Shown in pieces: positions 10,509 through 56,728 of a stretch of 64,000 nucleotides of DNA. The notes beneath the pieces were generated by a model. The model saw nothing but the letters and a program-made list of their open reading frames with translations. It had not been told where the DNA came from and did no database searches. Both the position numbers and the translations under genes were made by a program. Location of the stretch: NCBI RefSeq assembly GCF_050320075.1, contig NZ_CP190018.1. The stretch is one strand, 5' to 3'. The stretch comes from Escherichia coli (GTDB taxonomy: Bacteria > Pseudomonadota > Gammaproteobacteria > Enterobacterales > Enterobacteriaceae). How positions within the stretch are numbered: the stretch's first letter is position 1; every line of letters starts with the position of its first letter.

Positions 10509-10523
10509 GTTGGAGTCATTACC

Positions 10524-32813: not shown

Positions 32814-32874
32814 GTGATCTTCCTTAATGCTATGAGTAATTAAGGCGAACGCTAAATATACTCGTCATACTTCA

Positions 32875-33045
32875 AGTTGCATGTGCTGCGTCTGCGGGTT
32901 ATTCGGCCCATCCATGGGCCTCACCCCTTATGGGGCCGCTGCAGGCAGCGTTCAAATCCGCTCCATGCGGATTTGTCGCTCACCCCAGTCACTTACTTAT
33001 GTAAGCTCCTGGGGACTCTCTCACTTGTCGCCTTCCTGCAACTCG
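32875..33045. repeat. ERIC (IRU) intergenic repeat element
   Basis: Contains gctcaccccagtcacttacttatgtaagctcctggggac, the reverse complement of the ERIC core; boundaries approximate. Confidence 0.7.
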
Positions 33046-33293
33046 AATTATTTAGAGTATAAATATTGCGTGCTGATATTAAGGCTATGCGCGTGGGGAA
33101 ATTTAAACTGTGAAAGGATTCACAAATAGCTGTGGTTCAGAATGTTATATCCGCAGCTTATTGAGTGAAGTAATAATTATTCTCAATAATTAACAGAAAA
33201 GAGAAAATATTAACGATAGAAAATAAGATAAACAATCAGGTAATGGTGCCAACTTACTGATTTAGTGTATGATGGTGTTTTTGAGGTGCTCCC

Positions 33294-33569
33294 GTGGCTT
33301 CCATCTCCATCAGTTGTCCCTCCTGCTCAGCTACTGAAGGCGTGGTGCGTAACGGTAAAAGTACTGCCGGACATCAGCGCTATCTCTGCTCTCACTGCCG
33401 TAAAACATGGCAACTGCAGTTCACTTACACCGCTTCTCAACCCGGTACACACCAGAAAATCATTGATATGGCCATGAATGGTGTTGGATGCCGGGCAACC
33501 GCCCGCATTATGGGCGTTGGCCTCAACACGATTTTACGTCACTTAAAAAACTCAGGCCGCAGTCGGTAA
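33294..33569 (+). CDS. insA: IS1 InsA (variant)
   Basis: 91-aa [21 protein letters not shown]...; 3 substitutions relative to the copy at 9811. Confidence 0.95.
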
Positions 33570-33991
33570 CCTCGCGCATACAGCCGGGCAGTGATGTGAT
33601 TGTCTGCGCTGAAATGGACGAACAGTGGGGCTACGTCGGTGCTAAATCACGTCAGCGCTGGCTGTTTTACGCGTATGACAGGATACGGAGGACGGTTGTG
33701 GCGCACGTCTTCGGTGAACGCACTCTGGCCACACTGGAGCGTCTTCTGAGCCTGCTGTCGGCCTTTGAGGTCGTGGTATGGATGACGGATGGCTGGCCGC
33801 TGTATGAATCCCGCCTGAAGGGAAAGCTGCACGTAATCAGCAAGCGTTACACTCAGCGCATTGAGCGACATAACCTGAATCTGAGACAACATCTGGCAAG
33901 GCTGGGACGGAAGTCACTGTCGTTCTCAAAATCGGTGGAGCTGCATGACAAAGTCATCGGGCATTATCTGAACATAAAACACTATCAGTAA
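33488..33991 (+). CDS. insB: IS1 InsB (variant)
   Basis: 167-aa ORF; about 12 substitutions relative to the copy at 10005. Confidence 0.93.
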
Positions 33992-34001
33992 GTTGGAGTC
34001 A

Positions 34002-35982
<1,981 letters not shown>

Positions 35983-36111
35983 GGCGTTGCCTCATAATCA
36001 TGTAATGGGATAACAGTTTACGAACCCGTTGTGGCTTTATATGTGATCTGAATCTCATTAATTATGCAACGCGTGAAACATACATCAAAAATGCGCGACG
36101 CATCGCAAATT

Positions 36112-37238
<1,127 letters not shown>

Positions 37239-37440
37239 TTAATTCGTAAAACGTGCTACCGATCACATTAAGAAATCAGCGCTTATTTTTTCGCTCCCCG
37301 GCATTACGCAATGCGCAGCGAACTCAGGCATACATCAAGCATAGAGAGGGATTGCAGTTTGCAGCAATCCCTCTTTGCAGACCTTTAATCCGCTGACCAT
37401 AGGCGCTAACATAGCGCCTCATTTTTTTGCGGGTGATGAT

Positions 37441-38388
37441 ATGCGTGTGTTATTGGCACCGATGGAGGGAGTGCTTGACTCTCTGGTGCGTGAATTGCTG
37501 ACCGAAGTTAACGACTACGATCTGTGCATCACCGAGTTTGTCCGCGTGGTGGATCAACTGCTGCCGGTAAAAGTCTTTCATCGCATTTGCCCTGAGCTAC
37601 AAAACGCCAGCCGGACACCATCTGGTACGCTGGTGCGCGTGCAGTTGTTAGGTCAGTTCCCACAATGGCTGGCAGAGAACGCCGCCCGTGCGGTGGAGTT
37701 AGGTTCCTGGGGCGTGGATCTCAATTGCGGCTGCCCGTCGAAAACGGTTAACGGTAGCGGCGGCGGGGCGACGTTACTCAAAGATCCTGAACTCATCTAC
37801 CAGGGTGCAAAAGCGATGCGTGAAGCTGTACCGGCGCATTTGCCCGTCAGCGTGAAAGTGCGTCTGGGCTGGGACAGCGGTGAGAAGAAATTTGAAATCG
37901 CCGATGCGGTTCAACAGGCTGGCGCTACGGAGCTGGTGGTGCATGGGCGGACGAAAGAGCAGGGTTACCGCGCGGAGCATATTGACTGGCAGGCGATTGG
38001 CGATATTCGCCAGCGGCTGAATATTCCGGTGATTGCCAACGGTGAAATCTGGGACTGGCAGAGCGCGCAACAATGCATGGCGATCAGCGGCTGCGACGCA
38101 GTGATGATTGGTCGCGGGGCGCTCAATATTCCCAACCTGAGCCGGGTGGTAAAATATAACGAACCGCGAATGCCGTGGCCGGAGGTGGTTGCTTTGCTGC
38201 AAAAATATACCCGTCTGGAAAAGCAGGGCGATACCGGGTTATATCACGTTGCGCGGATTAAACAGTGGTTGAGTTATTTGCGTAAAGAATACGATGAAGC
38301 AACGGAATTATTTCAGCATGTTCGGGTGTTGAATAATTCCCCTGATATTGCAAGGGCTATTCAGGCAATTGATATCGAGAAACTCTAA
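37441..38388 (+). CDS. dusC: tRNA-dihydrouridine synthase C
   Basis: 315-aa protein from ATG at 37441 ([14 protein letters not shown]...); TIM-barrel Dus motifs. Confidence 0.92.
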
Positions 38389-38439
38389 AAAACCATAGTG
38401 ATGTTTTTTGACAATGTGTTAGCTCTTTATCAATAGGCC

Positions 38440-38700
38440 GCACGGTTGTTTGGTGGCGTCAAAATTGCCGAGGCGTTCCCTGAAGGCCGGGGCAGCCCAC
38501 ATGGATGTGGGCTGAGGGCGCGTTTTACAGGGATGTTACCTCGCGCCCGACCCGGTAGCCGTAAGGGATAAGCCGAGGGCACCGCGCAGCGGCGATTTTG
38601 TTCGCCAGAGCCCGGGGGTGCAGGGGGCGGCGGCGATTGGCCGCCCCCTGCGCGCTCCTTGCGCCAGTGATTATATGAAGCAATGCACATGACAGGAGCG
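38440..38700. other. GC-rich structured intergenic element of unknown function
   Basis: Visibly GC-rich; perfect 22-bp palindrome at 38493-38514 and a 12-bp stem / 8-nt loop hairpin at 38620-38651; the only ORF is a Pro/Gly/Arg-rich 86-aa frame. Confidence 0.4.
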
Positions 38701-38760
38701 CAACAGGATGAGAGACTGAAATATTCTCGTTATTTTCGGACCTGATGACATTAATTAATT

Positions 38761-38844
38761 TTAAAATATCATCTTAAATACGCCAGTCACCACCAGTAGC
38801 CCAATCAGGAAAATAATCAATACAGCCCAGAGTATAATTTTCAT
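38761..38844 (-). CDS. yohP: Small membrane protein YohP (27 aa)
   Basis: Reverse-strand ORF MKIILWAVLIIFLIGLLVVTGVFKMIF; below the ORF-track size cutoff. Confidence 0.8.
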   Translation of the reverse strand: MKIILWAVLIIFLIGLLVVTGVFKMIF

Positions 38845-39067
38845 TGGCGTTCCTTTATTTGTGAGTGCTGAATAAGTATAGGAAAAAACGAAGCCCTTTG
38901 CCGTTATCCATAAACGATTAAGATAAATCGGAAGATATCATTCACTTAGTGTATATTTTTCTGGATATGTCGTTTTATTGCCACTGATGTATTGCCACGC
39001 GAAACTAAAAAATATATCGCAACACACGGTAATCTCCGCGCACCTTTTCTTACCTGATTATTCCCCC

Positions 39068-40504
39068 ATGAATCGTGATTCCTTTTATCCAGCCATCGCC
39101 TGTTTTCCGCTGTTACTGATGCTGGCCGGGTGTGCGCCTATGCATGAAACCCGCCAGGCGTTAAGCCAGCAAACGCCCGCTGCACAAGTTGACACCGCAT
39201 TACCCACGGCGCTGAAAAATGGTTGGCCAGACAGCCAATGGTGGCTGGAGTATCACGATAATCAACTCACTTCCTTAATTAACAATGCACTACAGAACGC
39301 ACCGGATATGCAGGTGGCTGAACAGCGCATTCAGCTAGCTGAAGCCCAGGCGAAGGCAGTTGCCACTCAGGATGGTCCGCAGATCGACTTTTCGGCGGAT
39401 ATGGAGCGGCAAAAAATGTCGGCAGAAGGCTTAATGGGGCCGTTTGCTCTGAACGATCCGGCCGCAGGTACGACCGGCCCGTGGTACACCAACGGTACTT
39501 TTGGCTTAACGGCGGGCTGGCATCTCGATATCTGGGGAAAGAATCGGGCGGAGGTTACTGCCCGCCTGGGTACGGTTAAAGCACGGGCGGCGGAACGCGA
39601 GCAAACCCGCCAATTGCTGGCTGGCAGCGTAGCCCGCCTGTACTGGGAGTGGCAAACCCAGGCGGCGTTAAACACTGTCTTGCAGCAAATAGAAAAAGAG
39701 CAGAACACCATTATCGCGACCGATCGCCAGCTATATCAGAACGGGATTACTTCTTCAGTTGAAGGTGTGGAAACCGATATTAATGCCAGCAAAACCCGGC
39801 AGCAGCTCAACGATGTCGCGGGGAAAATGAAAATTATTGAGGCACGGTTAAGCGCACTTACAAATAACCAGACAAAGTCATTGAAGCTTAAACCGGTCGC
39901 GTTGCCGAAAGTGGCAAGCCAGCTTCCTGATGAACTGGGGTACTCCTTACTGGCCCGGCGGGCAGATTTGCAGGCGGCGCACTGGTACGTTGAGTCATCG
40001 CTAAGCACCATTGATGCGGCAAAAGCGGCATTTTATCCTGACATCAACCTGATGGCCTTCCTGCAACAGGATGCGTTGCACTTAAGCGATCTGTTCCGTC
40101 ATTCCGCGCAGCAAATGGGCGTTACGGCAGGCCTGACGCTACCCATTTTCGATAGTGGTCGTCTTAACGCCAATCTCGATATCGCAAAAGCCGAAAGCAA
40201 CTTGTCTATCGCCAGCTACAACAAAGCGGTGGTTGAAGCGGTGAATGACGTGGCGCGGGCAGCCAGTCAGGTTCAGACACTGGCGGAGAAAAACCAGCAT
40301 CAGGCGCAAATTGAGCGCGATGCCTTGCGTGTGGTAGGTCTTGCGCAGGCGCGCTTTAACGCGGGCATCATTGCGGGTTCCCGCGTCAGCGAAGCCAGAA
40401 TCCCCGCGCTGCGTGAGCGGGCCAATGGCCTGTTATTGCAAGGGCAGTGGCTGGATGCCTCCATTCAACTCACTGGTGCGTTGGGCGGGGGTTACAAACG
40501 CTGA
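39068..40504 (+). CDS. mdtQ: Outer membrane efflux lipoprotein MdtQ (OprM/NodT family), intact
   Basis: 478-aa protein from ATG at 39068; lipobox LLMLAGC; uninterrupted frame (listed ORF has a 30-codon upstream extension). Confidence 0.85.
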   Translation: MNRDSFYPAIACFPLLLMLAGCAPMHETRQALSQQTPAAQVDTALPTALKNGWPDSQWWLEYHDNQLTSLINNALQNAPDMQVAEQRIQLAEAQAKAVATQDGPQIDFSADMERQKMSAEGLMGPFALNDPAAGTTGPWYTNGTFGLTAGWHLDIWGKNRAEVTARLGTVKARAAEREQTRQLLAGSVARLYWEWQTQAALNTVLQQIEKEQNTIIATDRQLYQNGITSSVEGVETDINASKTRQQLNDVAGKMKIIEARLSALTNNQTKSLKLKPVALPKVASQLPDELGYSLLARRADLQAAHWYVESSLSTIDAAKAAFYPDINLMAFLQQDALHLSDLFRHSAQQMGVTAGLTLPIFDSGRLNANLDIAKAESNLSIASYNKAVVEAVNDVARAASQVQTLAEKNQHQAQIERDALRVVGLAQARFNAGIIAGSRVSEARIPALRERANGLLLQGQWLDASIQLTGALGGGYKR

Positions 40505-40556
40505 TGATATGCGCCTTCTATACTTAACGTTTATTCAGCGTTAAGTGGAGAACTCG

Positions 40557-41318
40557 ATGGCACAGGTTGCGATTATTACCGCCTCCGATTCGGGGATCGG
40601 CAAAGAGTGCGCGTTATTACTGGCGCAGCAGGGGTTTGATATTGGTATTACCTGGCACTCAGATGAAGAAGGGGCAAAAGATACCGCGCGTGAGGTAGTT
40701 AGCCACGGCGTACGTGCGGAGATCGTGCAGCTGGATCTCGGCAATCTACCAGAAGGGGCACTGGCGCTGGAGAAACTCATTCAACGGCTGGGGCGCATTG
40801 ATGTGCTGGTGAATAATGCGGGTGCAATGACCAAAGCGCCGTTTCTTGATATGGCTTTTGATGAGTGGCGCAAGATTTTTACCGTTGATGTCGATGGTGC
40901 ATTCTTATGCTCGCAAATTGCGGCTCGTCAGATGGTGAAACAAGGGCAGGGCGGTCGCATCATCAACATTACGTCGGTACATGAACATACGCCGCTGCCG
41001 GATGCCAGCGCCTACACAGCCGCTAAACATGCGCTCGGTGGGTTAACCAAAGCGATGGCGCTGGAGCTGGTCAGGCATAAGATTTTGGTGAACGCAGTCG
41101 CGCCTGGGGCGATCGCCACGCCAATGAATGGCATGGATGACAGCGACGTGAAGCCCGACGCGGAGCCTTCGATTCCCTTGCGGCGTTTTGGCGCAACGCA
41201 TGAGATTGCCAGCCTGGTGGTGTGGCTTTGTTCGGAGGGCGCAAATTACACCACCGGGCAGTCGTTGATAGTGGATGGCGGCTTTATGTTGGCGAATCCA
41301 CAGTTCAACCCAGAATAG
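40557..41318 (+). CDS. yohF: Short-chain dehydrogenase/reductase YohF
   Basis: 253-aa protein; TASDSGIGK Rossmann motif, YTAAK catalytic motif. Confidence 0.9.
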   Translation: MAQVAIITASDSGIGKECALLLAQQGFDIGITWHSDEEGAKDTAREVVSHGVRAEIVQLDLGNLPEGALALEKLIQRLGRIDVLVNNAGAMTKAPFLDMAFDEWRKIFTVDVDGAFLCSQIAARQMVKQGQGGRIINITSVHEHTPLPDASAYTAAKHALGGLTKAMALELVRHKILVNAVAPGAIATPMNGMDDSDVKPDAEPSIPLRRFGATHEIASLVVWLCSEGANYTTGQSLIVDGGFMLANPQFNPE

Positions 41319-41369
41319 CGCAGTGAGGTGCGTGGATATTTCATTGGGTAATATTTTGGTCGGCATGAA

Positions 41370-41466
41370 AAGACGCACAAGCGTCGTATCAGGCATGGTA
41401 CTCCGGATGTCGGATGCGGCGCGAACGCCTTATCCAGGGCAATGGTTTTACGCCTGATGATCCGGC
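41370..41466. repeat. REP/BIME cluster between yohF and yohD
   Basis: cggatgtcggatgcggcgcgaacgccttatccagg plus flanking REP-like half sites. Confidence 0.55.
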
Positions 41467-42026
41467 TTTTTCTTCCCGCGTCGTTTCAGCCACCAGCGCA
41501 CGCCCACCACCAGAACCACGACCAGAATCAACCAGACCCAGTGCTTCAAATGCTGGTCGAGATTGTGCAACCACGGCGCAATCACCTGACCACCAGCGTA
41601 ACCAATAGTGGTAAAAATCAACGCCCAGGCAAATGCGCCGAGAATATTCAGCGGCAGAAAGATTTTCGGCGGCAGCTGGCTGGCACCAATCAGCGTCGGG
41701 CCAATCACCCGAAAGCCATACATAAAGCGCGTACCAATGACAAACAGATACGGATGGCGTTGGATAAGTTTCTGCGCCCGCTCAATTTTATCCTGATGTT
41801 TCGAGAAACGGCGTAACAGCTTGCCGCCAAACCGCCGCCCGCACAGATAGAGCACCTGGTCGCCAATCATGCCGCCAAGCGCCACAGAAAGTACCACCAG
41901 CGGGAACTTTAATAGCCCCTGATGCGCCGCAACGCCTCCCAGCAAAGTCACGGTTTCACCTTCCGCCAGGCTACCGATCACCAGCGCGGCATAACCATAT
42001 TGTGAGATAAGTGTATTGAGATCCAT
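41448..42026 (-). CDS. yohD: DedA-family inner membrane protein YohD
   Basis: 192-aa protein from ATG at 42026 (MDLNTLISQYGYAALVIGSLAEGE...). Confidence 0.9.
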   Translation of the reverse strand: MDLNTLISQYGYAALVIGSLAEGETVTLLGGVAAHQGLLKFPLVVLSVALGGMIGDQVLYLCGRRFGGKLLRRFSKHQDKIERAQKLIQRHPYLFVIGTRFMYGFRVIGPTLIGASQLPPKIFLPLNILGAFAWALIFTTIGYAGGQVIAPWLHNLDQHLKHWVWLILVVVLVVGVRWWLKRRGKKKPDHQA

Positions 42027-42195
42027 AGGCCAGTCTGTCTCCCTTTGGTTGCCAGTAAGCATACACCCTGTGAATCATTCACGCTGAAAAAGGACGTTCA
42101 TCAGACAGTGAAAATTACATGGGCGAACAAAAAATAATCACAAGCTGACTTATACTTGAACTGTCAGGTTCATGAACTCACAACAAGGGGGCGGT

Positions 42196-42783
42196 ATGAG
42201 CCATGTCTGGGGACTGTTTTCCCATCCCGATCGTGAAATGCAGGTGATTAATCGCGAAAACGAAACGATTTCTCACCATTACACCCACCACGTTTTGCTG
42301 ATGGCGGCGATTCCGGTGATTTGCGCCTTCATTGGCACTACACAGATTGGCTGGAATTTTGGCGATGGCACTATCCTGAAGTTATCCTGGTTTACCGGAC
42401 TGGCGCTGGCTGTCTTGTTTTACGGCGTTATGCTGGCTGGGGTCGCGGTGATGGGGCGGGTCATCTGGTGGATGGCGCGTAATTATCCGCAGCGTCCGTC
42501 ACTTGCGCACTGCATGGTCTTCGCGGGCTACGTTGCAACTCCGCTGTTTTTAAGCGGTCTGGTGGCGCTTTATCCACTGGTCTGGTTGTGTGCGCTGGTC
42601 GGCACGGTGGCGCTGTTTTACACCGGCTACCTGCTTTACCTTGGTATTCCGAGCTTCCTGAATATCAACAAAGAGGAAGGCCTTAGCTTCTCTAGTTCGA
42701 CGCTGGCGATTGGCGTGCTGGTACTGGAAGTGCTGCTCGCCCTAACCGTTATACTATGGGGCTACGGTTATCGTTTGTTCTAG
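42196..42783 (+). CDS. yohC: Yip1-family inner membrane protein YohC
   Basis: 195-aa protein from ATG at 42196 (MSHVWGLFSHPDREMQ...). Confidence 0.88.
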   Translation: MSHVWGLFSHPDREMQVINRENETISHHYTHHVLLMAAIPVICAFIGTTQIGWNFGDGTILKLSWFTGLALAVLFYGVMLAGVAVMGRVIWWMARNYPQRPSLAHCMVFAGYVATPLFLSGLVALYPLVWLCALVGTVALFYTGYLLYLGIPSFLNINKEEGLSFSSSTLAIGVLVLEVLLALTVILWGYGYRLF

Positions 42784-42956
42784 AAAGTTCTTTGACGTTG
42801 CATTGCTGGCGTAAATGTCAGCAATGCAGCATTTCCTCACGATTCTCCTTTGACGATCGCACTTTTTGCTCGTTATGATGGCGTCGCTAGCCTCAGTAAA
42901 TCCTTACTCCGGCGGTGCGCAACCCGTGCGCGTGAACCACTATCTGAATGCTCATC

Positions 42957-43889
42957 ATGCCGAAATTTCGAGTTTCTTTATTTAGCCTGGCCCTGATGCT
43001 GGCTGTGCCTTTTGCACCGCAGGCCGTTGCGAAAACGGCAGCCGCTACCACCGCTTCACAACCGGAAATTGCCTCCGGTAGCGCGATGATTGTTGATCTG
43101 AATACCAACAAAGTGATCTATTCGAACCACCCGGATCTGGTGCGTCCGATTGCGTCTATCAGCAAATTAATGACCGCGATGGTTGTGCTGGATGCACGAC
43201 TGCCGCTGGATGAAAAACTAAAAGTGGATATCAGCCAGACGCCGGAGATGAAAGGGGTCTATTCGCGCGTACGACTGAATAGCGAAATCAGCCGTAAAGA
43301 TATGCTGTTGCTGGCGCTGATGTCTTCAGAAAACCGCGCGGCGGCAAGCCTTGCGCACCATTATCCCGGTGGTTACAAAGCCTTTATTAAGGCAATGAAT
43401 GCGAAAGCGAAATCGCTCGGAATGAACAACACGCGCTTTGTTGAACCTACCGGATTGTCGGTGCATAACGTTTCAACTGCCCGTGACTTAACCAAACTGC
43501 TCATTGCCAGCAAACAATATCCGTTGATCGGGCAGTTAAGTACTACCCGGGAAGATATGGCAACCTTCTCTAATCCGACGTATACGCTGCCGTTCCGCAA
43601 TACTAATCATCTGGTGTATCGCGATAACTGGAATATTCAGTTAACCAAAACCGGCTTTACCAATGCGGCGGGCCATTGTCTGGTGATGCGTACGGTTATC
43701 AATAATAAACCGGTGGCGCTGGTAGTGATGGACGCGTTTGGCAAATATACCCATTTTGCCGATGCCAGCCGCCTGCGTACCTGGATTGAAACCGGTAAAG
43801 TGATGCCTGTGCCGGCAGCAGCGTTGAGCTATAAAAAACAAAAAGCCGCCCAAATGGCGGCGGCGGGGCAGACGGCACAGAACGATTAA
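42957..43889 (+). CDS. pbpG: D-alanyl-D-alanine endopeptidase PBP7
   Basis: 310-aa protein with signal peptide; SISK active-site serine motif. Confidence 0.92.
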
Positions 43890-43926
43890 GTGAATTCGGA
43901 TGGCGATACTCTGCCATCCGTAATTT

Positions 43927-45642
43927 TTACTCCACTTCCTGCCAGTTTTTCCGTTTACTGGTTTTACCGATCCCCGGATTCATGCTGTTGGTCGGATCGT
44001 TCTCGCGATAGAACTTCTGCAACGTCTCCGGTGCTTTATACAAATGACCGACGTTATGCTCGGCAGGGTACTGCGCGCCGCGCTGCTGTAGCAGTTCCAG
44101 CATCTGTTCTTTTAACGCATGCACATCCACGCCTTTTTTCACTATGTAATCCTGATGGAAGACATAGCACATAAAATGGCCGTAATAGAGCTTGTGCACC
44201 AGCTGGCTGTCGATCTCCGGCGGTAAATGCTCATACCACTCGGTGTCGTTACGCCGCAGAGCGATATCCAACGCCAGAATGTCTTCGACTTCATCGGAAT
44301 GCACCGCCTGATAACGAATTGCTGCGCCCGCAGCGGCGAAACGGTGTAAAAACGCTTTGCTGCCTTCCTCCGGCGTACAGACAAAGAAATCGCCTTCGGC
44401 CTGTTTGAAATAATCCACCAGCCACGATTTGGCTTCGCCCACGCCATCGCCCGCCATTTTTAACAGCAGATGATGCTCGTATTTATCGCGCCAGTTTTTC
44501 ATGCGCGGCGGTAAATGGCTGGGGAACAGGTGACCGAATTTTTGCATCGCACGGTCAGTAAAATGCGGACGGAAGAATTTCACTTTCTCCAGCATCGCAT
44601 CGGTGCGTCCCTTGAGATTAAAGAAGAACGGCATCTTGTCGGTGCCTAACTTATCAATCATCAGGAAGGTGTCTTTGCCGTATTTTTCCGCAATATCGTA
44701 GATATCCCGGTGCATATATTCCCCGGCAACCGGCAGATTTTCGAAGTTAGCCAGAATATGACGGCGGATTTCGGTCAGCACTTCCGGCTGGTTGGTGCCG
44801 ATATAAAACACCTGCTGATTTTTTTCCGCTTCGAAGGTATCAAGACGTACTGCAAAGACCGCCAGCTTCCCGGCGCAACCAGAAGATTCAAATAACCGAT
44901 CAGGATCGGCGTTATAACGTGCGGGCGTGTCGGCTTCAATATCACGAACGCGGTGGACATAGTCATAATCGTGGGCGTGACGACCATCGTGACGCACATC
45001 GTCATCTTTGATGCGATCATCATCCAGCTTGCTAAGGATCTGCTCCGGCGTTTCGCCCAGATCAATCCCCAGATGGTTCACCAGCGTCAGTTTGCCGTCT
45101 TCATTTATACGCGCGAATAACGACATTTCGGTATACGCCGGGCCACGTTGCACCAGCGAGCCGCCGGAGTTGTTACAAATACCGCCGATGACCGATGCGC
45201 CTATACACGATGATCCAATCACTGAGTGCGGTTCGCGTCCCAGCGGTTTGAGGGCTTTTTCCAGCGAATAGAGCGTGGTGCCCGGATAGGCCAGCACCTG
45301 TTCGCCCTTGCCAAGAACGTGCAGCTTGTCGAGACGCAGGGTGCTGATGATAACGACATCGCGATCATAATCGTTACCGTTTGGCGTCGATCCTTCGGTC
45401 AGGCCTGTATTGGCGGCCTGCATCAGAATAATTTTGTCGGCGGTGACGCAGGCTTTCAGCACCCGCCACAATTCTAGTAGTGAGCCAGGGAAAACGACAG
45501 CCAGCGCGTCGCCCTGACCAGAACGGAAGCCCTTGCGATAGCGGGCCGTTTTTGCGGGATCGGTGAGCAGGTGTGAAGAACCCACCAGACGAGCAAGTTC
45601 ATTCAAAAAGGCTTTATTATCAGTTGTTGTCATGGAAGACAT
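43927..45642 (-). CDS. dld: FAD-dependent D-lactate dehydrogenase
   Basis: 571-aa protein from ATG at 45642 (MSSMTTTDNKAFLNELARLVG...). Confidence 0.93.
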   Translation of the reverse strand: MSSMTTTDNKAFLNELARLVGSSHLLTDPAKTARYRKGFRSGQGDALAVVFPGSLLELWRVLKACVTADKIILMQAANTGLTEGSTPNGNDYDRDVVIISTLRLDKLHVLGKGEQVLAYPGTTLYSLEKALKPLGREPHSVIGSSCIGASVIGGICNNSGGSLVQRGPAYTEMSLFARINEDGKLTLVNHLGIDLGETPEQILSKLDDDRIKDDDVRHDGRHAHDYDYVHRVRDIEADTPARYNADPDRLFESSGCAGKLAVFAVRLDTFEAEKNQQVFYIGTNQPEVLTEIRRHILANFENLPVAGEYMHRDIYDIAEKYGKDTFLMIDKLGTDKMPFFFNLKGRTDAMLEKVKFFRPHFTDRAMQKFGHLFPSHLPPRMKNWRDKYEHHLLLKMAGDGVGEAKSWLVDYFKQAEGDFFVCTPEEGSKAFLHRFAAAGAAIRYQAVHSDEVEDILALDIALRRNDTEWYEHLPPEIDSQLVHKLYYGHFMCYVFHQDYIVKKGVDVHALKEQMLELLQQRGAQYPAEHNVGHLYKAPETLQKFYRENDPTNSMNPGIGKTSKRKNWQEVE

Positions 45643-45837
45643 TTTCCACTCCTTGTGGTGGCGAAAAAATATCACAAACTAGAATAGCGCCTTGTATAAC
45701 AATTCAGCGAGTGAATATTTTGAAAATTCAGACAATAAACTGAGCATTCTTTTTCTCTCTCCATCATGCTTATGGCAAACTACGGTTTTTGCACCATTTT
45801 CGCTGCCACGTCGGGCAACAAAGGAAGAAAAATCCAT

Positions 45838-48135
45838 ATGAAATGGCTATGTTCAGTAGGAGTCGCGGTGAGTCTGGCCCTGCAGCCAGCACTGGCGGAT
45901 GATTTATTCGGCAACCATCCATTAACGCCCGAAGCGCGGGATGCGTTCGTCACCGAACTGCTTAAGAAAATGACAGTTGATGAGAAAATTGGTCAGCTGC
46001 GCTTAATCAGCGTCGGCCCGGATAACCCGAAAGAGGCGATCCGCGAGATGATCAAAGACGGTCAGGTTGGGGCGATTTTCAACACCGTAACCCGTCAGGA
46101 TATCCGCGCCATGCAGGATCAGGTGATGGAATTAAGCCGCCTGAAAATTCCTCTTTTCTTTGCTTACGACGTGCTGCACGGTCAGCGCACGGTGTTCCCG
46201 ATTAGCCTCGGTCTGGCCTCGTCTTTTAACCTCGATGCAGTGAAAACGGTCGGACGTGTCTCTGCTTATGAAGCGGCAGATGATGGCCTGAATATGACCT
46301 GGGCACCGATGGTCGATGTCTCGCGCGATCCGCGCTGGGGACGTGCTTCCGAAGGTTTTGGCGAAGATACGTATCTCACCTCAACAATGGGTAAAACCAT
46401 GGTGGAAGCGATGCAGGGTAAAAGCCCGGCAGATCGCTACTCGGTGATGACCAGCGTCAAACACTTTGCCGCATACGGCGCGGTAGAAGGCGGTAAAGAG
46501 TACAACACCGTCGATATGAGTCCGCAGCGCCTGTTTAATGATTATATGCCGCCGTACAAAGCGGGGCTGGACGCAGGCAGCGGCGCGGTGATGGTGGCGC
46601 TGAACTCGCTGAACGGCACGCCAGCCACCTCCGATTCCTGGCTGCTGAAAGATGTTCTGCGCGACCAGTGGGGCTTTAAAGGCATCACCGTTTCCGATCA
46701 CGGTGCAATCAAAGAGCTGATTAAACATGGCACGGCGACAGACCCGGAAGATGCGGTGCGCGTGGCGCTGAAATCCGGAATCAACATGAGCATGAGCGAC
46801 GAGTACTACTCGAAGTATCTGCCTGGGTTGATTAAATCCGGCAAAGTGACGATGGCAGAGCTGGACGATGCTGCCCGCCATGTACTGAACGTTAAATATG
46901 ATATGGGGTTGTTTAACGACCCATACAGCCATTTGGGGCCGAAAGAGTCTGACCCGGTGGATACCAATGCCGAAAGCCGCCTGCACCGTAAAGAAGCGCG
47001 TGAAGTGGCGCGCGAAAGCTTGGTGTTGCTGAAAAACCGTCTCGAAACGTTACCGCTGAAAAAATCGGCCACCATTGCGGTGGTTGGGCCACTGGCGGAC
47101 AGTAAACGTGACGTGATGGGCAGCTGGTCCGCAGCCGGTGTTGCCGATCAATCCGTGACCGTACTGACCGGGATTAAAAATGCCGTCGGTGAAAACGGTA
47201 AAGTGCTGTATGCCAAAGGGGCGAACGTTACCAGTGACAAAGGCATTATCGATTTCCTGAATCAGTATGAAGAAGCGGTCAAAGTCGATCCGCGTTCGCC
47301 GCAAGAGATGATTGATGAAGCGGTGCAGACGGCGAAACAATCTGATGTGGTGGTGGCTGTAGTCGGTGAAGCACAGGGGATGGCGCACGAAGCCTCCAGC
47401 CGGACCGATATCACTATTCCGCAAAGCCAACGTGACTTGATTGCGGCGCTGAAAGCCACCGGTAAACCGCTGGTGCTGGTGCTGATGAACGGGCGTCCGC
47501 TGGCGCTGGTGAAAGAAGATCAGCAGGCTGATGCGATTCTGGAAACCTGGTTTGCGGGGACTGAAGGCGGTAATGCAATTGCCGATGTATTGTTTGGCGA
47601 TTACAACCCGTCCGGCAAGCTGCCAATGTCCTTCCCGCGTTCTGTCGGGCAGATCCCGGTGTACTACAGCCATCTGAATACCGGTCGCCCGTATAATGCC
47701 GACAAGCCGAACAAATACACTTCGCGTTATTTTGATGAAGCTAACGGGGCGTTGTATCCGTTCGGCTATGGGCTGAGCTACACCACTTTCACCGTCTCTG
47801 ATGTGAAACTTTCTGCGCCGACCATGAAGCGTGACGGCAAAGTGACTGCCAGCGTGCAGGTGACGAACACCGGTAAGCGCGAGGGTGCCACGGTAGTGCA
47901 GATGTACTTGCAGGATGTGACGGCTTCCATGAGTCGCCCTGTGAAACAGCTGAAAGGCTTTGAGAAAATCACCCTGAAACCGGGCGAAACTCAGACTGTC
48001 AGCTTCCCGATCGATATTGAGGCGCTGAAGTTCTGGAATCAACAGATGAAATATGACGCCGAGCCTGGCAAGTTCAATGTCTTTATCGGCACTGATTCCG
48101 CACGCGTTAAGAAAGGCGAGTTTGAGTTGCTGTAA
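45838..48135 (+). CDS. bglX: Periplasmic beta-glucosidase BglX (GH3)
   Basis: 765-aa protein from ATG at 45838 with signal peptide MKWLCSVGVAVSLALQPALA; RBS aaggaaga. Confidence 0.93.
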   Translation: MKWLCSVGVAVSLALQPALADDLFGNHPLTPEARDAFVTELLKKMTVDEKIGQLRLISVGPDNPKEAIREMIKDGQVGAIFNTVTRQDIRAMQDQVMELSRLKIPLFFAYDVLHGQRTVFPISLGLASSFNLDAVKTVGRVSAYEAADDGLNMTWAPMVDVSRDPRWGRASEGFGEDTYLTSTMGKTMVEAMQGKSPADRYSVMTSVKHFAAYGAVEGGKEYNTVDMSPQRLFNDYMPPYKAGLDAGSGAVMVALNSLNGTPATSDSWLLKDVLRDQWGFKGITVSDHGAIKELIKHGTATDPEDAVRVALKSGINMSMSDEYYSKYLPGLIKSGKVTMAELDDAARHVLNVKYDMGLFNDPYSHLGPKESDPVDTNAESRLHRKEAREVARESLVLLKNRLETLPLKKSATIAVVGPLADSKRDVMGSWSAAGVADQSVTVLTGIKNAVGENGKVLYAKGANVTSDKGIIDFLNQYEEAVKVDPRSPQEMIDEAVQTAKQSDVVVAVVGEAQGMAHEASSRTDITIPQSQRDLIAALKATGKPLVLVLMNGRPLALVKEDQQADAILETWFAGTEGGNAIADVLFGDYNPSGKLPMSFPRSVGQIPVYYSHLNTGRPYNADKPNKYTSRYFDEANGALYPFGYGLSYTTFTVSDVKLSAPTMKRDGKVTASVQVTNTGKREGATVVQMYLQDVTASMSRPVKQLKGFEKITLKPGETQTVSFPIDIEALKFWNQQMKYDAEPGKFNVFIGTDSARVKKGEFELL

Positions 48136-48169
48136 TGCTTTAGTAAGGGCGCGACGTTTGCGCCCTTTG

Positions 48170-48203
48170 TAGGCCGGATAAGGCGCTCGCGCCGCATCCG
48201 GCA
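48170..48203. repeat. REP element downstream of bglX
   Basis: taggccggataaggcgctcgcgccgcatccggca; preceded by a gggcgcgacgtttgcgccc terminator-like hairpin. Confidence 0.7.
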
Positions 48204-48345
48204 GGAAACGCCGGACCGAATATGCCTCTTAAGTATTTATCTGATTCTGCAACTGAATCCTTCCGCTCAAGCTAACCCCGCCATTATCAACTATGCTTTT
48301 CTCTTAATTCGCTGAAAACAACAGTAAAAGAATGAGGAAAGCATC

Positions 48346-49263
48346 ATGCCACTCTTAAAGCTCTGGGCAGGTTCACTGGTTATGTTGGCAGCCGTGAGCC
48401 TGCCGCTACAGGCGGCTTCCCCCGTTAAAGTCGGTTCAAAAATCGATACCGAAGGTGCGCTACTCGGCAATATCATTTTGCAGGTGCTGGAAAGCCACGG
48501 CGTACCGACGGTGAATAAAGTGCAACTCGGAACGACTCCTGTGGTGCGCGGGGCGATTACTTCCGGTGAACTGGATATCTATCCGGAATATACCGGCAAT
48601 GGCGCTTTCTTCTTTAAAGATGAAAACGATGCAGCGTGGAAAAACGCGCAGCAAGGTTACGAGAAAGTCAAAAAGCTCGATTCGGAGCACAACAAGTTAA
48701 TCTGGCTGACGCCCGCGCCTGCAAATAACACCTGGACTATCGCCGTGCGTCAGGATGTGGCAGAGAAAAATAAACTCACTTCGCTTGCCGACCTGAGTCG
48801 TTATCTGCAAGAGGGCGGCACCTTCAAACTGGCAGCCTCGGCAGAGTTTATCGAACGCGCCGATGCGTTACCCGCGTTTGAAAAAGCCTATGGCTTTAAG
48901 CTCGGTCAGGATCAGTTGCTGTCACTGGCTGGTGGCGACACGGCGGTGACGATCAAAGCCGCTGCCCAGCAAATCTCTGGCGTTAATGCTGCAATGGCTT
49001 ACGGCACTGACGGCCCGGTAGCGGCGCTGGGGCTGCAAACCTTAAGCGATCCGCAAGGTGTGCAACCTATCTACGCGCCTGCACCAGTGGTGCGTGAGTC
49101 GGTGTTGAGGGAGTATCCGCAAATGGCACAGTGGCTACAGCCAGTCTTCGCCAGCCTCGATGCAAAAACATTGCAGCAACTGAATGCCAGCATTGCTGTG
49201 GAAGGACTGGATGCCAAAAAAGTGGCTGCCGACTACCTGAAACAAAAAGGGTGGACGAAGTAA
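48346..49263 (+). CDS. osmF: Glycine betaine-binding periplasmic protein OsmF (YehZ)
   Basis: 305-aa ORF with signal peptide; first gene of the osmF-yehYXW ABC operon. Confidence 0.92.
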   Translation: MPLLKLWAGSLVMLAAVSLPLQAASPVKVGSKIDTEGALLGNIILQVLESHGVPTVNKVQLGTTPVVRGAITSGELDIYPEYTGNGAFFFKDENDAAWKNAQQGYEKVKKLDSEHNKLIWLTPAPANNTWTIAVRQDVAEKNKLTSLADLSRYLQEGGTFKLAASAEFIERADALPAFEKAYGFKLGQDQLLSLAGGDTAVTIKAAAQQISGVNAAMAYGTDGPVAALGLQTLSDPQGVQPIYAPAPVVRESVLREYPQMAQWLQPVFASLDAKTLQQLNASIAVEGLDAKKVAADYLKQKGWTK

Positions 49264-49269
49264 TTTCCC

Positions 49270-50427
49270 GTGACTTATTTCCGTATTAATCCTGTTCTGG
49301 CGCTGCTGCTGTTGCTGACGGCAATCGCAGCGGCGCTGCCGTTTATCAGTTACGCGCCTAATCGTTTAGTTTCGGGTGAGGGGCGTCATCTCTGGCAGCT
49401 GTGGCCGCAAACGATCTGGATGCTGGTGGGCGTTGGTTGCGCCTGGCTGACGGCCTGTTTTATTCCCGGTAAAAAAGGCAGCATTTGTGCACTCATTCTG
49501 GCGCAATTCGTCTTCGTATTGCTGGTGTGGGGAGCTGGAAAGGCGGCGACCCAACTGGCGCAAAATGGCAGTGCGCTGGCGCGTACCAGCCTCGGCAGTG
49601 GTTTCTGGCTGGCTGCGGCGCTGGCATTGCTGGCCTGTAGCGATGCCATCCGCCGAATCTCCACGCATCCGCTGTGGCGCTGGTTGTTGCATATGCAGAT
49701 TGCCATTATTCCGCTGTGGTTGCTGTACTCCGGCACGCTTAACGATCTCTCACTAATGAAAGAATACGCCAACCGTCAGGATGTGTTTGACGACGCGCTG
49801 GCACAACATCTGACGTTGCTGTTTGGTGCGGTGCTGCCTGCGTTAGTGATTGGTGTGCCGTTGGGCATCTGGTGCTACTTTTCCACTGCTCGGCAGGGGG
49901 CAATTTTTTCTCTGCTCAATGTGATTCAGACCGTGCCTTCGGTGGCGCTCTTTGGCCTGTTGATTGCGCCGCTTGCCGCGCTGGTTACGGCCTTTCCGTG
50001 GCTGGGGACGCTCGGCATAGCAGGAACCGGAATGACACCCGCACTGATTGCGCTGGTGCTCTATGCCTTGCTGCCGCTGGTGCGCGGCGTGGTAGTCGGT
50101 TTGAACCAGATCCCGCGCGATGTGCTGGAAAGCGCCAGAGCGATGGGGATGAGCGGGGCGCAGCGTTTCCTGCATGTTCAGTTACCGCTGGCGTTACCGG
50201 TATTTCTGCGCAGCCTGCGGGTGGTGATGGTGCAAACTGTAGGTATGGCGGTGATTGCGGCGTTAATCGGCGCAGGCGGTTTTGGTGCGCTGGTTTTCCA
50301 GGGGCTGCTAAGCAGTGCCATTGATTTAGTGTTGCTGGGGGTGATCCCGGTAATTGTTCTGGCGGTGCTGATCGATGCGCTGTTCGATTTGCTTATCGCA
50401 CTGCTGAAGGTGAAACGTAATGATTGA
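49270..50427 (+). CDS. yehY: ABC transporter permease YehY
   Basis: 385-aa multi-TM ORF. Confidence 0.9.
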
Positions 50428-51346
50428 ATTTAGCCATGTCAGCAAACTGTTCGGCGCACAAAAAGCCGTTAACGATCTCAATCTCAATTTTCAGGAGGGG
50501 AGTTTTTCGGTGCTGATTGGTACATCAGGCTCCGGTAAATCCACCACCCTGAAAATGATTAACCGCCTGGTGGAGCATGACAGCGGCGTGATCCGCTTTG
50601 CCGGAGAAGAAATTCGCTCGCTGCCAGTGCTGGAGTTGCGCCGCCGGATGGGCTATGCCATTCAATCTATTGGCCTGTTTCCCCACTGGAGCGTGGCGCA
50701 AAATATTGCCACCGTGCCGCAATTACAAAAATGGTCGCGGGCGCGGATTGACGATCGTATCGACGAATTAATGGCGCTACTGGGGCTGGAGCCAAATTTG
50801 CGTGAGCGTTATCCGCATCAGCTTTCTGGCGGTCAGCAGCAACGTGTGGGAGTGGCGCGCGCACTGGCTGCCGATCCGCAAGTCTTACTGATGGATGAAC
50901 CTTTTGGCGCGCTGGACCCGGTAACGCGCGGCGCGTTGCAACAAGAGATGACGCGCATACACCGTTTGCTGGGGCGTACCATTGTGCTGGTCACTCATGA
51001 TATTGATGAGGCGCTACGACTGGCAGAACATCTGGTGTTGATGGATCACGGTGAAGTGGTGCAGCAGGGCAATCCGCTGACGATGCTGACTCGTCCGGCG
51101 AATGATTTTGTCCGCCAGTTTTTTGGGCATAGTGAACTGGGTGTCCGCCTGCTTTCGTTACGTAGCGTGGCGGATTACGTGCGTCGCGAAGAACGGGCAG
51201 AAGGTGAGGCGCTGGCAGAAGAGATGACTCTACGCGATGCGCTCTCCCTGTTTGTCGCGCGGGGATGCGAGGTGCTGCCGGTGGTGAACACGCAGGGCCA
51301 GCCTTGCGGCACGCTGCATTTTCAGGATCTGCTGGTGGAGGCGTAA
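50420..51346 (+). CDS. yehX: ABC transporter ATPase YehX
   Basis: 308-aa ORF; Walker [10 protein letters not shown], signature LSGGQQQR. Confidence 0.92.
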
Positions 51347-51350
51347 ACGT

Positions 51351-52082
51351 ATGAAGATGTTGCGCGATCCGCTGTTCTGGCTCATTGCTCTGTTTGTGGC
51401 GCTGATTTTCTGGCTGCCTTACAGCCAGCCGCTGTTTGCTGCCTTGTTCCCACAACTGCCACGACCCGTTTATCAGCAAGAAAGTTTTGCTGCTCTGGCA
51501 CTGGCTCATTTCTGGCTGGTGGGAATTTCGAGTTTGTTTGCGGTGATCATTGGCACTGGTGCAGGAATTATTGTTACTCGCCCGTGGGGCGCGGAATTTC
51601 GCCCACTGGTGGAAACTATTGCCGCCGTTGGACAGACTTTTCCGCCCGTCGCGGTGCTGGCGATTGCCGTTCCGGTGATTGGGTTTGGTCTGCAACCCGC
51701 GATTATCGCCTTGATCCTTTATGGTGTGCTGCCCGTCCTGCAGGCAACACTTGCCGGGCTGGGAGCGATTGATGCCAGCGTGACAGAAGTTGCGAAAGGT
51801 ATGGGAATGAGCCGTGGTCAGCGACTGCGTAAGGTCGAGCTACCGCTGGCGGCTCCGGTGATTCTGGCGGGCGTGCGAACTTCGGTGATTATCAACATTG
51901 GTACGGCGACGATCGCCTCAACGGTAGGGGCCAGCACGCTGGGTACGCCGATCATCATCGGGCTTAGCGGATTTAATACCGCGTATGTGATCCAGGGGGC
52001 GTTACTGGTGGCACTGGCGGCGATCATTGCAGACCGCCTGTTTGAAAGGCTGGTGCAGGCGCTTAGCCAGCACGCAAAATAA
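51351..52082 (+). CDS. yehW: ABC transporter permease YehW
   Basis: 243-aa multi-TM ORF. Confidence 0.9.
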
Positions 52083-52170
52083 AGGTATAACCTGCGAGCA
52101 TGACGCCACCAATTCCGCCTAACGCCATAAACAGGAACAGGGCGATGACCCCAATTTTAGCTATGCGCAT
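52063..52170 (-). CDS. yohO: Small membrane protein YohO (35 aa)
   Basis: Reverse-strand [38 protein letters not shown]; 3' end overlaps yehW 3' end by 20 nt on the opposite strand. Confidence 0.8.
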
Positions 52171-52229
52171 AATGCACTCCTTATGTTAACGAAAGGATTG
52201 TACAGTAAAGCGCATTTGTTAACGAATCA

Positions 52230-52961
52230 TTAAATGCCGAGTGGGAAAATATCATGGCCTTGTTCCTGCCAACTGGTGAGTTGCTGCTGTTGGGCGGAGG
52301 TTCGATTTTCACCGCACCACACCAGCAATGTACGGCCTTCGAACAGTTCAGGGCGTAGTTGATTGAGCGAGTGGGCGAGGACATCAATGCGCCATCCTTG
52401 TTGACTGGCAATCCAGCCCTCCAGCCACAGACGGGTGGTATCATGAATATTCCAGCCAACCACCAACGCATCTTTACCCTGTTTTTTACGTGCCGAAGCC
52501 AGGCAAATGGCGATGTAGTTGATCAGTACGCCGTCGAGGATCGCCAGCAGCGCCTGGAGAGTCGGTTGTTGGCACTGAAGTCGTCGGCGCAGAGGAATAA
52601 ACAGATGTGTGGTGAGCGTCTGGGCGGGGTAATCCTGACCGCGCTCTTTGATCCACGTTCGCAGGCTATGCAGATTGCCGCTTTGCAGGTAAGTCAGTAA
52701 TGTTTCTTGCTGATCGCGCCAGCCGTTCTGCACATCAACATTTTCATTACTGAGCAGCATTTTAACTTTGCTGACCTGCACGCCGTTGTCGATCCAGCGT
52801 TTGATCTCGCGGATCCGGTCAATATCGGCATCGTTGAACAGCCGATGGCCGCCGTCTGTCCGTTGCGGTTTCAGCAATCCGTAACGCCTCTGCCACGCGC
52901 GTAACGTGACAGGGTTAATATCACAAAGCAACGCCACTTCACCAATTGTGTAAAGCGCCAT
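52230..52961 (-). CDS. mlrA: MerR-family regulator MlrA (YehV)
   Basis: 243-aa ORF MALYTIGEVALLCDINPVTLRAWQRRYGLLKPQRTDGGHRLF... Confidence 0.93.
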   Translation of the reverse strand: MALYTIGEVALLCDINPVTLRAWQRRYGLLKPQRTDGGHRLFNDADIDRIREIKRWIDNGVQVSKVKMLLSNENVDVQNGWRDQQETLLTYLQSGNLHSLRTWIKERGQDYPAQTLTTHLFIPLRRRLQCQQPTLQALLAILDGVLINYIAICLASARKKQGKDALVVGWNIHDTTRLWLEGWIASQQGWRIDVLAHSLNQLRPELFEGRTLLVWCGENRTSAQQQQLTSWQEQGHDIFPLGI

Positions 52962-53182
52962 CGTCTCACCCTTGCTCGCGAGGTCCCGGTTTAACTTTAG
53001 ACGCAGTTTTGCGAACCAGGTAGTTTTGCCCGTTTTTTGTGCATCTATAGGGTGATTTTATTTTTGCCAGGCGATTTTGAGTGATCGTACTCACGAATTC
53101 TCATTTTTCTGCAAGAGTTCAAAGAAAGTTAAACGCAGGCAATGTATGTTACGCGTTTTAAAGGGAAGTGTGGTTTGCGGGT

Positions 53183-54868
53183 ATGTACGATTTTAATCTG
53201 GTGTTGCTGCTGCTTCAGCAGATGTGCGTTTTTTTAGTCATTGCGTGGTTAATGAGTAAAACGCCATTATTCATACCGTTAATGCAGGTCACGGTTCGTC
53301 TGCCGCATAAATTTCTCTGCTACATCGTCTTTTCCATCTTCTGCATCATGGGCACCTGGTTTGGGTTGCACATTGACGATTCTATTGCCAATACCCGTGC
53401 GATAGGCGCGGTAATGGGCGGCTTACTCGGCGGTCCGGTCGTCGGTGGGCTGGTTGGTCTGACCGGCGGGTTACATCGATATTCGATGGGGGGCATGACC
53501 GCGCTAAGTTGCATGATCTCGACCATCGTTGAAGGGTTGCTCGGCGGCCTGGTACACAGCATCCTGATCCGTCGCGGGCGCACTGATAAAGTCTTTAACC
53601 CCATTACCGCCGGTGCCGTCACGTTCGTCGCTGAAATGGTGCAAATGTTGATCATCCTGGCAATCGCCCGACCTTATGAAGATGCGGTGCGTCTGGTGAG
53701 TAATATTGCTGCGCCAATGATGGTCACCAATACCGTCGGCGCGGCGCTGTTTATGCGTATATTGCTCGATAAACGCGCGATGTTTGAAAAATACACTTCG
53801 GCTTTTTCTGCCACTGCGCTAAAAGTGGCTGCCTCGACGGAAGGCATTTTGCGCCAGGGGTTTAACGAAGTGAACAGCATGAAAGTGGCACAGGTGCTGT
53901 ATCAGGAGCTGGATATTGGTGCAGTCGCGATTACCGATCGAGAGAAATTGCTGGCCTTTACCGGAATTGGTGACGATCACCATTTACCCGGCAAACCGAT
54001 TTCTTCGACTTACACCTTAAAAGCGATTGAAACCGGTGAAGTGGTCTACGCTGATGGCAACGAAGTACCTTATCGTTGCTCTTTGCATCCGCAATGCAAA
54101 CTGGGGTCGACGCTGGTAATTCCGTTGCGTGGTGAAAATCAGCGGGTGATGGGTACCATCAAATTGTATGAAGCCAAAAACCGTTTATTCAGTTCAATCA
54201 ATCGCACGCTGGGTGAGGGGATTGCGCAACTGCTTTCGGCGCAGATCCTCGCCGGGCAATATGAGCGGCAAAAAGCGATGCTCACCCAGTCAGAGATCAA
54301 ACTGCTTCACGCCCAGGTGAACCCCCATTTTTTGTTTAATGCGCTTAACACCATTAAAGCGGTGATCCGCCGCGACAGCGAACAGGCCAGCCAGCTGGTG
54401 CAGTATCTTTCCACTTTTTTCCGCAAAAACTTAAAGCGGCCTTCGGAGTTTGTTACTCTCGCCGACGAAATTGAACATGTGAACGCTTATCTGCAAATTG
54501 AAAAGGCGCGCTTCCAGTCGCGGTTGCAGGTCAACATTGCTATTCCGCAAGAATTATCCCAGCAGCAATTGCCCGCGTTTACCCTGCAACCGATAGTGGA
54601 AAACGCTATTAAACATGGGACATCACAACTGCTGGATACAGGGCGAGTGGCAATCAGCGCCCGACGTGAGGGGCAACATTTGATGCTGGAGATCGAAGAC
54701 AACGCCGGTTTGTATCAACCGGTAACCAATGCCAGTGGGCTGGGGATGAATCTGGTGGATAAGCGTTTACGTGAACGGTTTGGCGATGACTATGGGATAA
54801 GCGTCGCCTGTGAGCCTGATAGTTACACCCGAATAACGTTACGACTACCATGGAGGGACGAGGCATGA
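53183..54868 (+). CDS. btsS: LytS-type sensor histidine kinase BtsS (YehU)
   Basis: 561-aa protein from ATG at 53183; membrane domain, GAF-like region, His-kinase motifs ([15 protein letters not shown]). Confidence 0.92.
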
Positions 54869-55584: not shown

Positions 55585-55630
55585 AAGACTGCTAAAATGG
55601 CTTTTTGCCTCATCAACACCTGAAGGCCTC

Positions 55631-56101: not shown

Positions 56102-56142
56102 GACGGGTATGGCGGCCATGCAAAAACATGGCCGCCGACAGA

Positions 56143-56604: not shown

Positions 56605-56728
56605 GTAAAACTCCATTTTATTTAATCAAGAAACTGGTGACTCTCACCAGGAGCTATATAGGATATGCCTAATACCGTGACGTGAGCAGTCCGGAACTGG
56701 AGTAGAACTCTTAGTAAAAAGCACTATT

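Follow-up and report, generated by a model that had tools for sequence, protein, structure and literature searches.

The mdtQ (yohG) gene of this Escherichia coli genome is best read as an ordinary wild-type allele, encoding a fourth outer-membrane factor (OMF) of the species after TolC, CusC, and MdtP. We assign this reading a probability of roughly 0.9. The gene lies within a stretch of 64,000 nucleotides that was analysed as a whole and is referred to below as the window. That mdtQ is intact here is a correct but ordinary finding, as the gene, its family, and its pseudogene status in K-12 are already part of public annotation.

Reading frame and lipoprotein signal

The gene and its export signal occupy the following positions.

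39068..40504, plus strand: coding sequence of mdtQ (yohG), 478 amino acids and a TGA stop, an intact OMF lipoprotein gene
39068..39133, plus strand: lipoprotein signal peptide, residues 1-22, identified by a PS51257-type pattern match

A first-pass annotation of the sequence had described an intact frame of 478 residues. This description holds, with the frame running from ATG 39068 to TGA 40502-40504 without a break (1437 nt, or 478 codons and the stop). Over 1701 nt (38900-40600), the window matches the independent complete assembly of E. coli YZLc1-3 at 100%, which argues against a local assembly error. The YZLc1-3 copy is annotated as intact mdtQ (WP_001078139.1). The window protein is identical to this entry of other E. 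coli strains, within the annotated MdtQ (YohG) proteins of E. coli, Shigella, and Salmonella.

The position of the start codon is supported by comparison across genera. A mechanical list of open reading frames extends the frame upstream to TTG 38978, a start that was rejected as coding. In an upstream alignment of three genera, Salmonella and Citrobacter carry a 2-nt indel just 5' of the ATG. This indel breaks the TTG extension, so that ATG 39068 emerges as the conserved start. Two minus-strand open reading frames antisense to mdtQ (39367-39711 and 39736-40011) were taken as chance occurrences.

The N-terminus reads MNRDSFYPAIACFPLLLMLAGC followed by APM, with the cleavage mark placed before APM. 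The lipobox consists of L19-A20-G21-C22, with the Cys22 codon at 39131-39133 and Ala as the +2 residue. The string LLMLAGC, singled out as a lipobox by the first-pass annotation, corresponds to residues 16-22, and CFPLLLMLAGC satisfies the PROSITE PS51257-type lipobox regular expression, with Arg3 in the n-region. Cys22 is invariant across an alignment of 81 homologs at 26-94% identity. Following the established biology of OMF lipoproteins, the MdtQ precursor would be exported by Sec and diacylated at Cys22, after which signal peptidase II would cleave it and N-acylation would follow (Lgt, LspA, and Lnt). With Ala instead of Asp at +2, the mature protein would be expected to be sent to the outer membrane by the Lol system.

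Family placement and the pump partner

Profile comparisons identify the protein as MdtQ. The NCBIfam equivalog model NF008524 scored 1024.4 bits against a cutoff of 650 and aligned over residues 1-478 of 478. TIGR01845 (NodT) gave 274 bits against a cutoff of 210, covering model positions 4-460 of 460, and two tandem repeats of Pfam OEP (PF02321) were matched at E = 1.7e-30. Orthologues at 80-94% identity carry the name MdtQ in E. albertii, Salmonella, and Citrobacter. The next best model was that of MdtP (NF007390), whose score of 356 bits falls below the equivalog cutoff of 597 and hence marks MdtP as a paralogue. Models of RND-linked OMFs did not reach their cutoffs (AdeK, 122 against 900; AdeC, 75 against 975; CusC family, 97 against 598), and the TolC family model gave 54 bits.

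In a sequence search of the PDB, VceC (1yc9) was the best match (E = 1e-39, residues 51-477), followed by OprM (E = 1e-23), CmeC, SilC, CusC, OprN, and MtrE. A confident AlphaFold2 model (pLDDT 87, pTM 0.82), computed from 81 aligned sequences, predicts a TolC-type protomer. The predicted beta-strands span residues 105-116, 139-153, 325-336, and 348-357, and the predicted long helices span 158-224, 230-265, 359-431, and 437-471. VceC was also the top Foldseek match of this model (TM 0.75/0.87), ahead of CmeC, CusC, OprM (TM 0.73-0.77), OprN, SilC, MtrE, and TolC, with a probability of 1.00 for VceC, CmeC, CusC, OprM, and TolC. By analogy with these channels, MdtQ would assemble into a trimer with a 12-stranded beta-barrel and a long alpha-helical periplasmic tunnel. 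The tip of the tunnel would dock tip-to-tip on the hairpin of a periplasmic adaptor, allowing an inner-membrane transporter to expel substrates across the outer membrane.

Several characterized systems offer points of comparison. MdtP (YjcP), the OMF of the E. coli mdtNOP (sdsRQP) operon, is a NodT-type lipoprotein like MdtQ. Its operon, ytcA-mdtNOP, has the same YtcA-MFP-FUSC-OMF layout as some relatives of MdtQ at 36-42% identity. VceC of Vibrio cholerae, the OMF of the MFS-type tripartite pump VceCAB, is the closest solved structure by both sequence and predicted fold. Identity between VceC and MdtQ is nevertheless ~25%, and the VceC gene shares an operon with those of its adaptor and MFS pump, whereas mdtQ stands alone. 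OprM (1wp1), CusC (3pik), and TolC (1ek9) have the trimeric OMF fold in common, which for MdtQ is a predicted one. All three lie considerably further from MdtQ (OprM 87 bits, CusC 80 bits, and TolC 54 bits by its family model) and serve RND or ABC systems. OprM and CusC are N-terminally lipidated, whereas TolC is not a lipoprotein.

In contrast to mdtP, mdtQ is adjoined by no adaptor or pump gene in E. coli, and the same applies in Salmonella and Citrobacter; any partner must thus be encoded elsewhere. Indications of its type were sought in the gene neighbourhoods of relatives, drawn from a library clustered at 50% identity. This library provided eight loci, two of which (P0126 and P0132) lie on short contigs and are uninformative. 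Two relatives, P0127 (42% identity) and P0129 (37%), belong to YtcA-MFP-FUSC-OMF operons with an MFP of the AaeA type, and two others, P0125 (42%) and P0130 (36%), have a FUSC gene directly upstream. P0131 (39%) has an MFS gene on one side and an EmrA-type adaptor gene on the other. P0121 (60%) is an orphan with an SDR gene downstream, as in E. coli. Among the six informative neighbourhoods, FUSC genes therefore adjoin in four, an MFS gene with an EmrA-type adaptor gene in one, and an RND gene in none.

Taken together, the next-best score of the MdtP model, the RND-linked scores far under their cutoffs, and the FUSC and MFS neighbourhoods led us to place MdtQ in an MdtP/VceC-like branch of OMFs. 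The earlier label "OprM/NodT" is hence appropriate in its second half, given the TIGR01845 score. Its first half amounts to a loose analogy at the superfamily level, since the closest proteins are MdtP and VceC. As the closest non-orphan relatives sit in FUSC or MFS operons and MdtP and VceC are the nearest named proteins, the most likely partners of MdtQ may be AaeA/EmrA-type adaptors with FUSC or MFS transporters (e.g., MdtNO, AaeAB, EmrAB, or EmrKY) and not RND pumps. This suggestion is weak, because the sample is small, a literature search found no paper linking AaeAB and MdtQ, and deletion of aaeB has a clear phenotype in MG1655 (PMC11481567). In that strain mdtQ is broken, which indicates that AaeAB does not need MdtQ.

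A more specific proposal, which we advance tentatively and consider rather doubtful, is that in wild E. coli MdtQ acts as the exit duct of at least one pump that has an AaeA/EmrA-type adaptor but no channel of its own (for example, AaeAB or EmrAB/EmrKY), and that this function has been overlooked because of K-12. If so, the role would have been missed because efflux genetics in E. coli has been carried out almost entirely in K-12, where a one-base deletion has removed MdtQ. In that background, TolC or transport across the inner membrane only would cover for it.

OMFs can be promiscuous, and MdtQ belongs to the same superfamily and predicted fold as OprM, as the PDB and Foldseek matches illustrate. 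It could accordingly be imagined as an OprM-like channel for RND pumps (AcrAB, AcrEF, MdtABC, and others), acting as an alternative to TolC. We regard this option as quite unlikely in view of the low scores of the AdeK, AdeC, and CusC family models, the absence of RND genes from the six informative neighbourhoods, and the preference for MdtP and VceC, the latter of which serves an MFS pump.

Conservation and expression signals

The following features flank the coding sequence.

38761..38844, minus strand: yohP, a 27-aa small membrane protein, divergent upstream neighbour, transferred from annotated loci
38986..39012, plus strand: non-coding block GATGTATTGCCACGCGAAACTAAAAAA, 56-82 nt 5' of the ATG, from the three-genus alignment
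39043..39067, plus strand: C-rich translation-initiation region CCTTTTCTTACCTGATTATTCCCCC before the ATG, read from the sequence
40521..40547, plus strand: 11-bp hairpin in the 52-nt mdtQ-yohF spacer, RNA fold -21.8 kcal/mol, z = -1.8 (weak)
40557..41318, plus strand: yohF, an SDR-family oxidoreductase, downstream neighbour, annotated in YZLc1-3 and K-12

K-12, YZLc1-3, and Salmonella share the gene order dusC-yohP-mdtQ-yohF-yohD-yohC-pbpG with the window, and Salmonella also retains the divergent yohP/mdtQ arrangement. In Citrobacter, yohF does not adjoin mdtQ, and an obligatory mdtQ-yohF unit is therefore unlikely. Co-transcription of the two genes in E. coli is possible, as a terminator scan found no terminator between them. 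The intergenic hairpin stands directly 5' of the yohF ribosome-binding site (GGAG) and is not a typical intrinsic terminator because it has no T-run. An Rfam scan of 38300-40700 returned a single TwoAYGGAY match in the dusC-yohP spacer (30.9 bits, under the gathering score of 43), which was treated as chance or REP-like.

Upstream of the gene, the 27-nt block at 38986-39012 hardly varies between E. coli, Salmonella, and Citrobacter; it may represent a promoter or operator element. A simple scan detected no consensus sigma-70 promoter at this block or near mdtQ. The only plus-strand site that it reported lies at 38745-38772, ~300 nt upstream and within the yohP region. No Shine-Dalgarno sequence precedes the ATG in E. 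coli, nor in Salmonella (…CACCTCCATG) or Citrobacter (…TATCTCCATG). Were MdtQ the exit duct proposed above, the conserved block and the start codon lacking a Shine-Dalgarno sequence would reflect tight, condition-specific control. A 2025 review describes the mdtQ promoter as unconfirmed and notes that the gene, though annotated as a pseudogene, is a conserved part of the E. coli core genome (PMC11762307). In Klebsiella, the YohG orthologue was detected in the outer-membrane proteome (PMC4404324), so at least one orthologue is made.

Among 5426 complete E. coli genomes, all but three (5423) contain the mdtQ region. Seven divergent alleles, at 97.2-99.2% identity, all encode 478 amino acids. Their dN/dS against the window allele ranges from 0.03 to 0.11, the average across all pairs is 0.08, and segregating sites are distributed as 15/9/60 over the three codon positions. 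Both the ratios and the codon-position pattern show strong purifying selection on mdtQ in E. coli. The gene had been called a potentially functional channel of the NodT family, and this wording gains support from the family scores, the predicted fold, and the purifying selection.

Damaged or altered copies do occur. Strain ETEC1730 has a frameshifted copy, strain A8 carries a copy whose 3' end is altered, and a 435-aa form of the protein results from an in-frame deletion of 43 residues. Independent truncations are described in Salmonella Typhi and Paratyphi A (PMC9241588). The gene can be dispensed with in the laboratory, and sporadic losses occur in nature; examples are K-12, ETEC1730, the 43-aa deletion, Typhi, and Paratyphi A.

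Such observations might suggest that the mdtQ frame is open but cryptic, in other words a poorly expressed relic with no working partner that is in the course of being lost, with K-12 further along. Neither a Shine-Dalgarno sequence nor a consensus promoter was recognized, the gene is an orphan with no adjoining adaptor or pump, K-12 grows normally without MdtQ, and inactivation has occurred independently in K-12, ETEC1730, Typhi, and Paratyphi A. Despite these points, we judge a cryptic state highly improbable, because the pattern of conservation is unlike that of a decaying gene. The gene is retained in nearly all complete genomes, the seven divergent alleles are intact with a dN/dS of ~0.08, and orthologues at 80-94% identity persist in three other genera. 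Conservation extends across genera to the non-coding block upstream, and the Klebsiella orthologue has been seen by outer-membrane proteomics.

The K-12 pseudogene and the strain background

The difference between the wild-type allele of the window and its K-12 counterpart is confined to one short run of bases.

39215..39219, plus strand: A5 homopolymer in codons 50-51 (AAA AAT); alignment with MG1655 b2139 gives A4 in K-12, a frameshift

The MG1655 annotation lists mdtQ (b2139) as a pseudogene of 1436 nt, and a K-12-type copy in strain PG20180172 is flagged as "frameshifted" by RefSeq. Alignment with b2139, which the first-pass annotation had proposed as a check, yields exactly four differences, namely one A indel and three synonymous third-position changes (39676, 40375, and 40492). 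K-12 does not carry the intact sequence, having lost one A. The frameshifted K-12 pseudogene named by the annotation is accordingly confirmed by both the b2139 annotation and the change from A5 to A4. The K-12 frame comes to an end after 69 residues. The frame downstream of it lacks a signal peptide and offers no start codon ahead of the position corresponding to Met81. Hence, the channel cannot be made by K-12. Judged from this comparison, the window allele would in effect be the ancestor of the K-12 pseudogene, that is, the K-12 allele before the frameshift. The near-identity of the two alleles apart from the A indel implies that the K-12 frameshift is very recent.

Frequencies across the species identify K-12 as the exception. 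An 84-nt probe for the K-12 A4 allele matched exactly in 355 of 5411 genomes, a figure that counts the exact K-12 A4 context only. Four sampled exact matches (ER1709, an MG1655 evolution clone, a CV601 derivative, and a "Laboratory" isolate) were all laboratory strains. Among sampled rows in which the probe did not match exactly, all 56 span one extra base, corresponding to A5. Intact mdtQ is therefore the norm of the species, with A5 in about 93% of complete E. coli genomes.

Around the gene, the window resembles K-12 closely. Positions 34000-50500 (~16.5 kb) are ~99.9% identical to K-12, and 38388-41318 contain only four differences, the A indel among them. Identity to MG1655 is 98.1-98.7% over 1-32800 and 95-97% over 50500-64000, so that the mdtQ locus sits in a K-12-like mosaic block. 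Relative to MG1655, the window also carries an IS150 (1.44 kb) inside cirA and an extra IS1 between preT and yeiS, and has lost psuKGT-yeiL through a 4.4-kb deletion. The cirA::IS150 junction is common to only 15 complete genomes, YZLc1-3 included. The divergence of the flanks, the two insertions, and the deletion indicate that the window derives from a natural, non-K-12 lineage. An intact copy had been taken as a sign of a non-K-12 background. The background is indeed non-K-12, as these insertions, the deletion, and flanks at 95-98.7% identity attest, but intactness itself does not distinguish it when ~93% of genomes have A5.

That the apparent intactness is a homopolymer-length assembly error over a true K-12 A4 sequence has a probability close to nil. 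In favour of such an error, a single base in an A-run is all that separates the frame from that of K-12, and the 16 kb around it are ~99.9% K-12-like. Against it, the rest of the window is clearly non-K-12 (IS150 in cirA, the extra IS1, the 4.4-kb deletion, and flanks at 95-98%), an independent assembly with the same rare cirA::IS150 junction matches the 1701-nt region base for base, and A5 predominates among complete genomes.

The wild-type status of mdtQ in the window has consequences for how the gene is studied. K-12 is atypical at this locus, and phenotypes ascribed to "mdtQ/yohG null mutants" in K-12 backgrounds need caution. Work on the function of MdtQ and its pump partner needs non-K-12 strains, or a K-12 strain in which the one missing A has been restored. 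For such work, the neighbourhood survey offers a modest, testable pointer, in which a FUSC or MFS system with an AaeA/EmrA-type adaptor would be a likelier partner than an RND pump.

Mosaic identity to K-12 around mdtQ

Identity to the K-12 reference (MG1655) changes along the window. Over the 16.5 kb surrounding mdtQ (34000-50500), it reaches about 99.9%, while upstream of this block it lies at 98.1-98.7% and from 50500 onward, on the yehW-yehL side, at 95-97%. This mosaic pattern suggests that 34000-50500 is a recombination block in common with the K-12 lineage.

The region upstream of mdtQ contains two elements found in E. coli, Salmonella, and Citrobacter. A non-coding block, GATGTATTGCCACGCGAAACTAAAAAA (38986-39012), is near-invariant in these three taxa, and a C-rich stretch precedes the mdtQ start codon (39043-39067). 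This stretch lacks a Shine-Dalgarno sequence in all three. The region may represent an unrecognised regulatory site. Further upstream, the GC-rich, REP-like dusC-yohP spacer (38446-38597, + strand) gave a match to the Rfam TwoAYGGAY RNA at 30.9 bits (E = 0.029), below the gathering score of 43 bits for this family. The match is probably due to chance.

Insertions and gene loss relative to K-12

Several structural differences from K-12 were identified elsewhere in the window, including two insertion sequences and one multigene replacement.

Features that differ from K-12 (window coordinates)
18815-22240, + strand: cirA, encoding the receptor for catecholate siderophores and colicins Ia/Ib, interrupted by an insertion
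about 20168-21609: IS150 element (IS3 family) inside cirA, from comparison with K-12
21563-21042, - strand: OrfA of IS150
20799-20194, - strand: OrfB of IS150
about 33239-34006: IS1 copy between preT and yeiS, not in K-12
33294-33569: InsA of this IS1
33488-33991: InsB of this IS1
9755-10524: replacement sequence of about 770 nt at the site of the missing yeiL-psuT-psuG-psuK

Comparison with K-12 shows that IS150 splits cirA. Of 5426 complete E. coli genomes, only 15 have this junction, among them the independent assembly YZLc1-3, XJW9B277, DETEC-E223, G5, and certain ST131 isolates. CirA loss has been linked to resistance to colicins and to lowered cefiderocol susceptibility; hence, the cirA disruption may be of greater phenotypic relevance than mdtQ.

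At the preT-yeiS IS1, the alignment reveals a 9-bp overlap of K-12 coordinates, consistent with target duplication. About 200 nt at 32852-33072 are likewise absent from K-12. Conversely, the window lacks yeiL-psuT-psuG-psuK, which span about 4.4 kb in K-12 (MG1655 2255186-2259508).

Natural variants and null phenotypes of mdtQ

Other E. coli strains carry altered forms of mdtQ. In ETEC1730 the gene is a frameshifted pseudogene, and strain A8 has a 1476-nt variant whose 3' end is changed. A 435-aa E. coli protein, seen on 43 contigs, lacks residues 243-285 through an in-frame deletion.

Susceptibility phenotypes of mdtQ (yohG) null mutants are quoted in the literature (PMC11762307, PMC9241588) for puromycin, acriflavine, and tetraphenylarsonium, and go back to a 2001 study. 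If the strain used there was K-12, the null phenotype calls for another explanation, since mdtQ is already frameshifted in that background.
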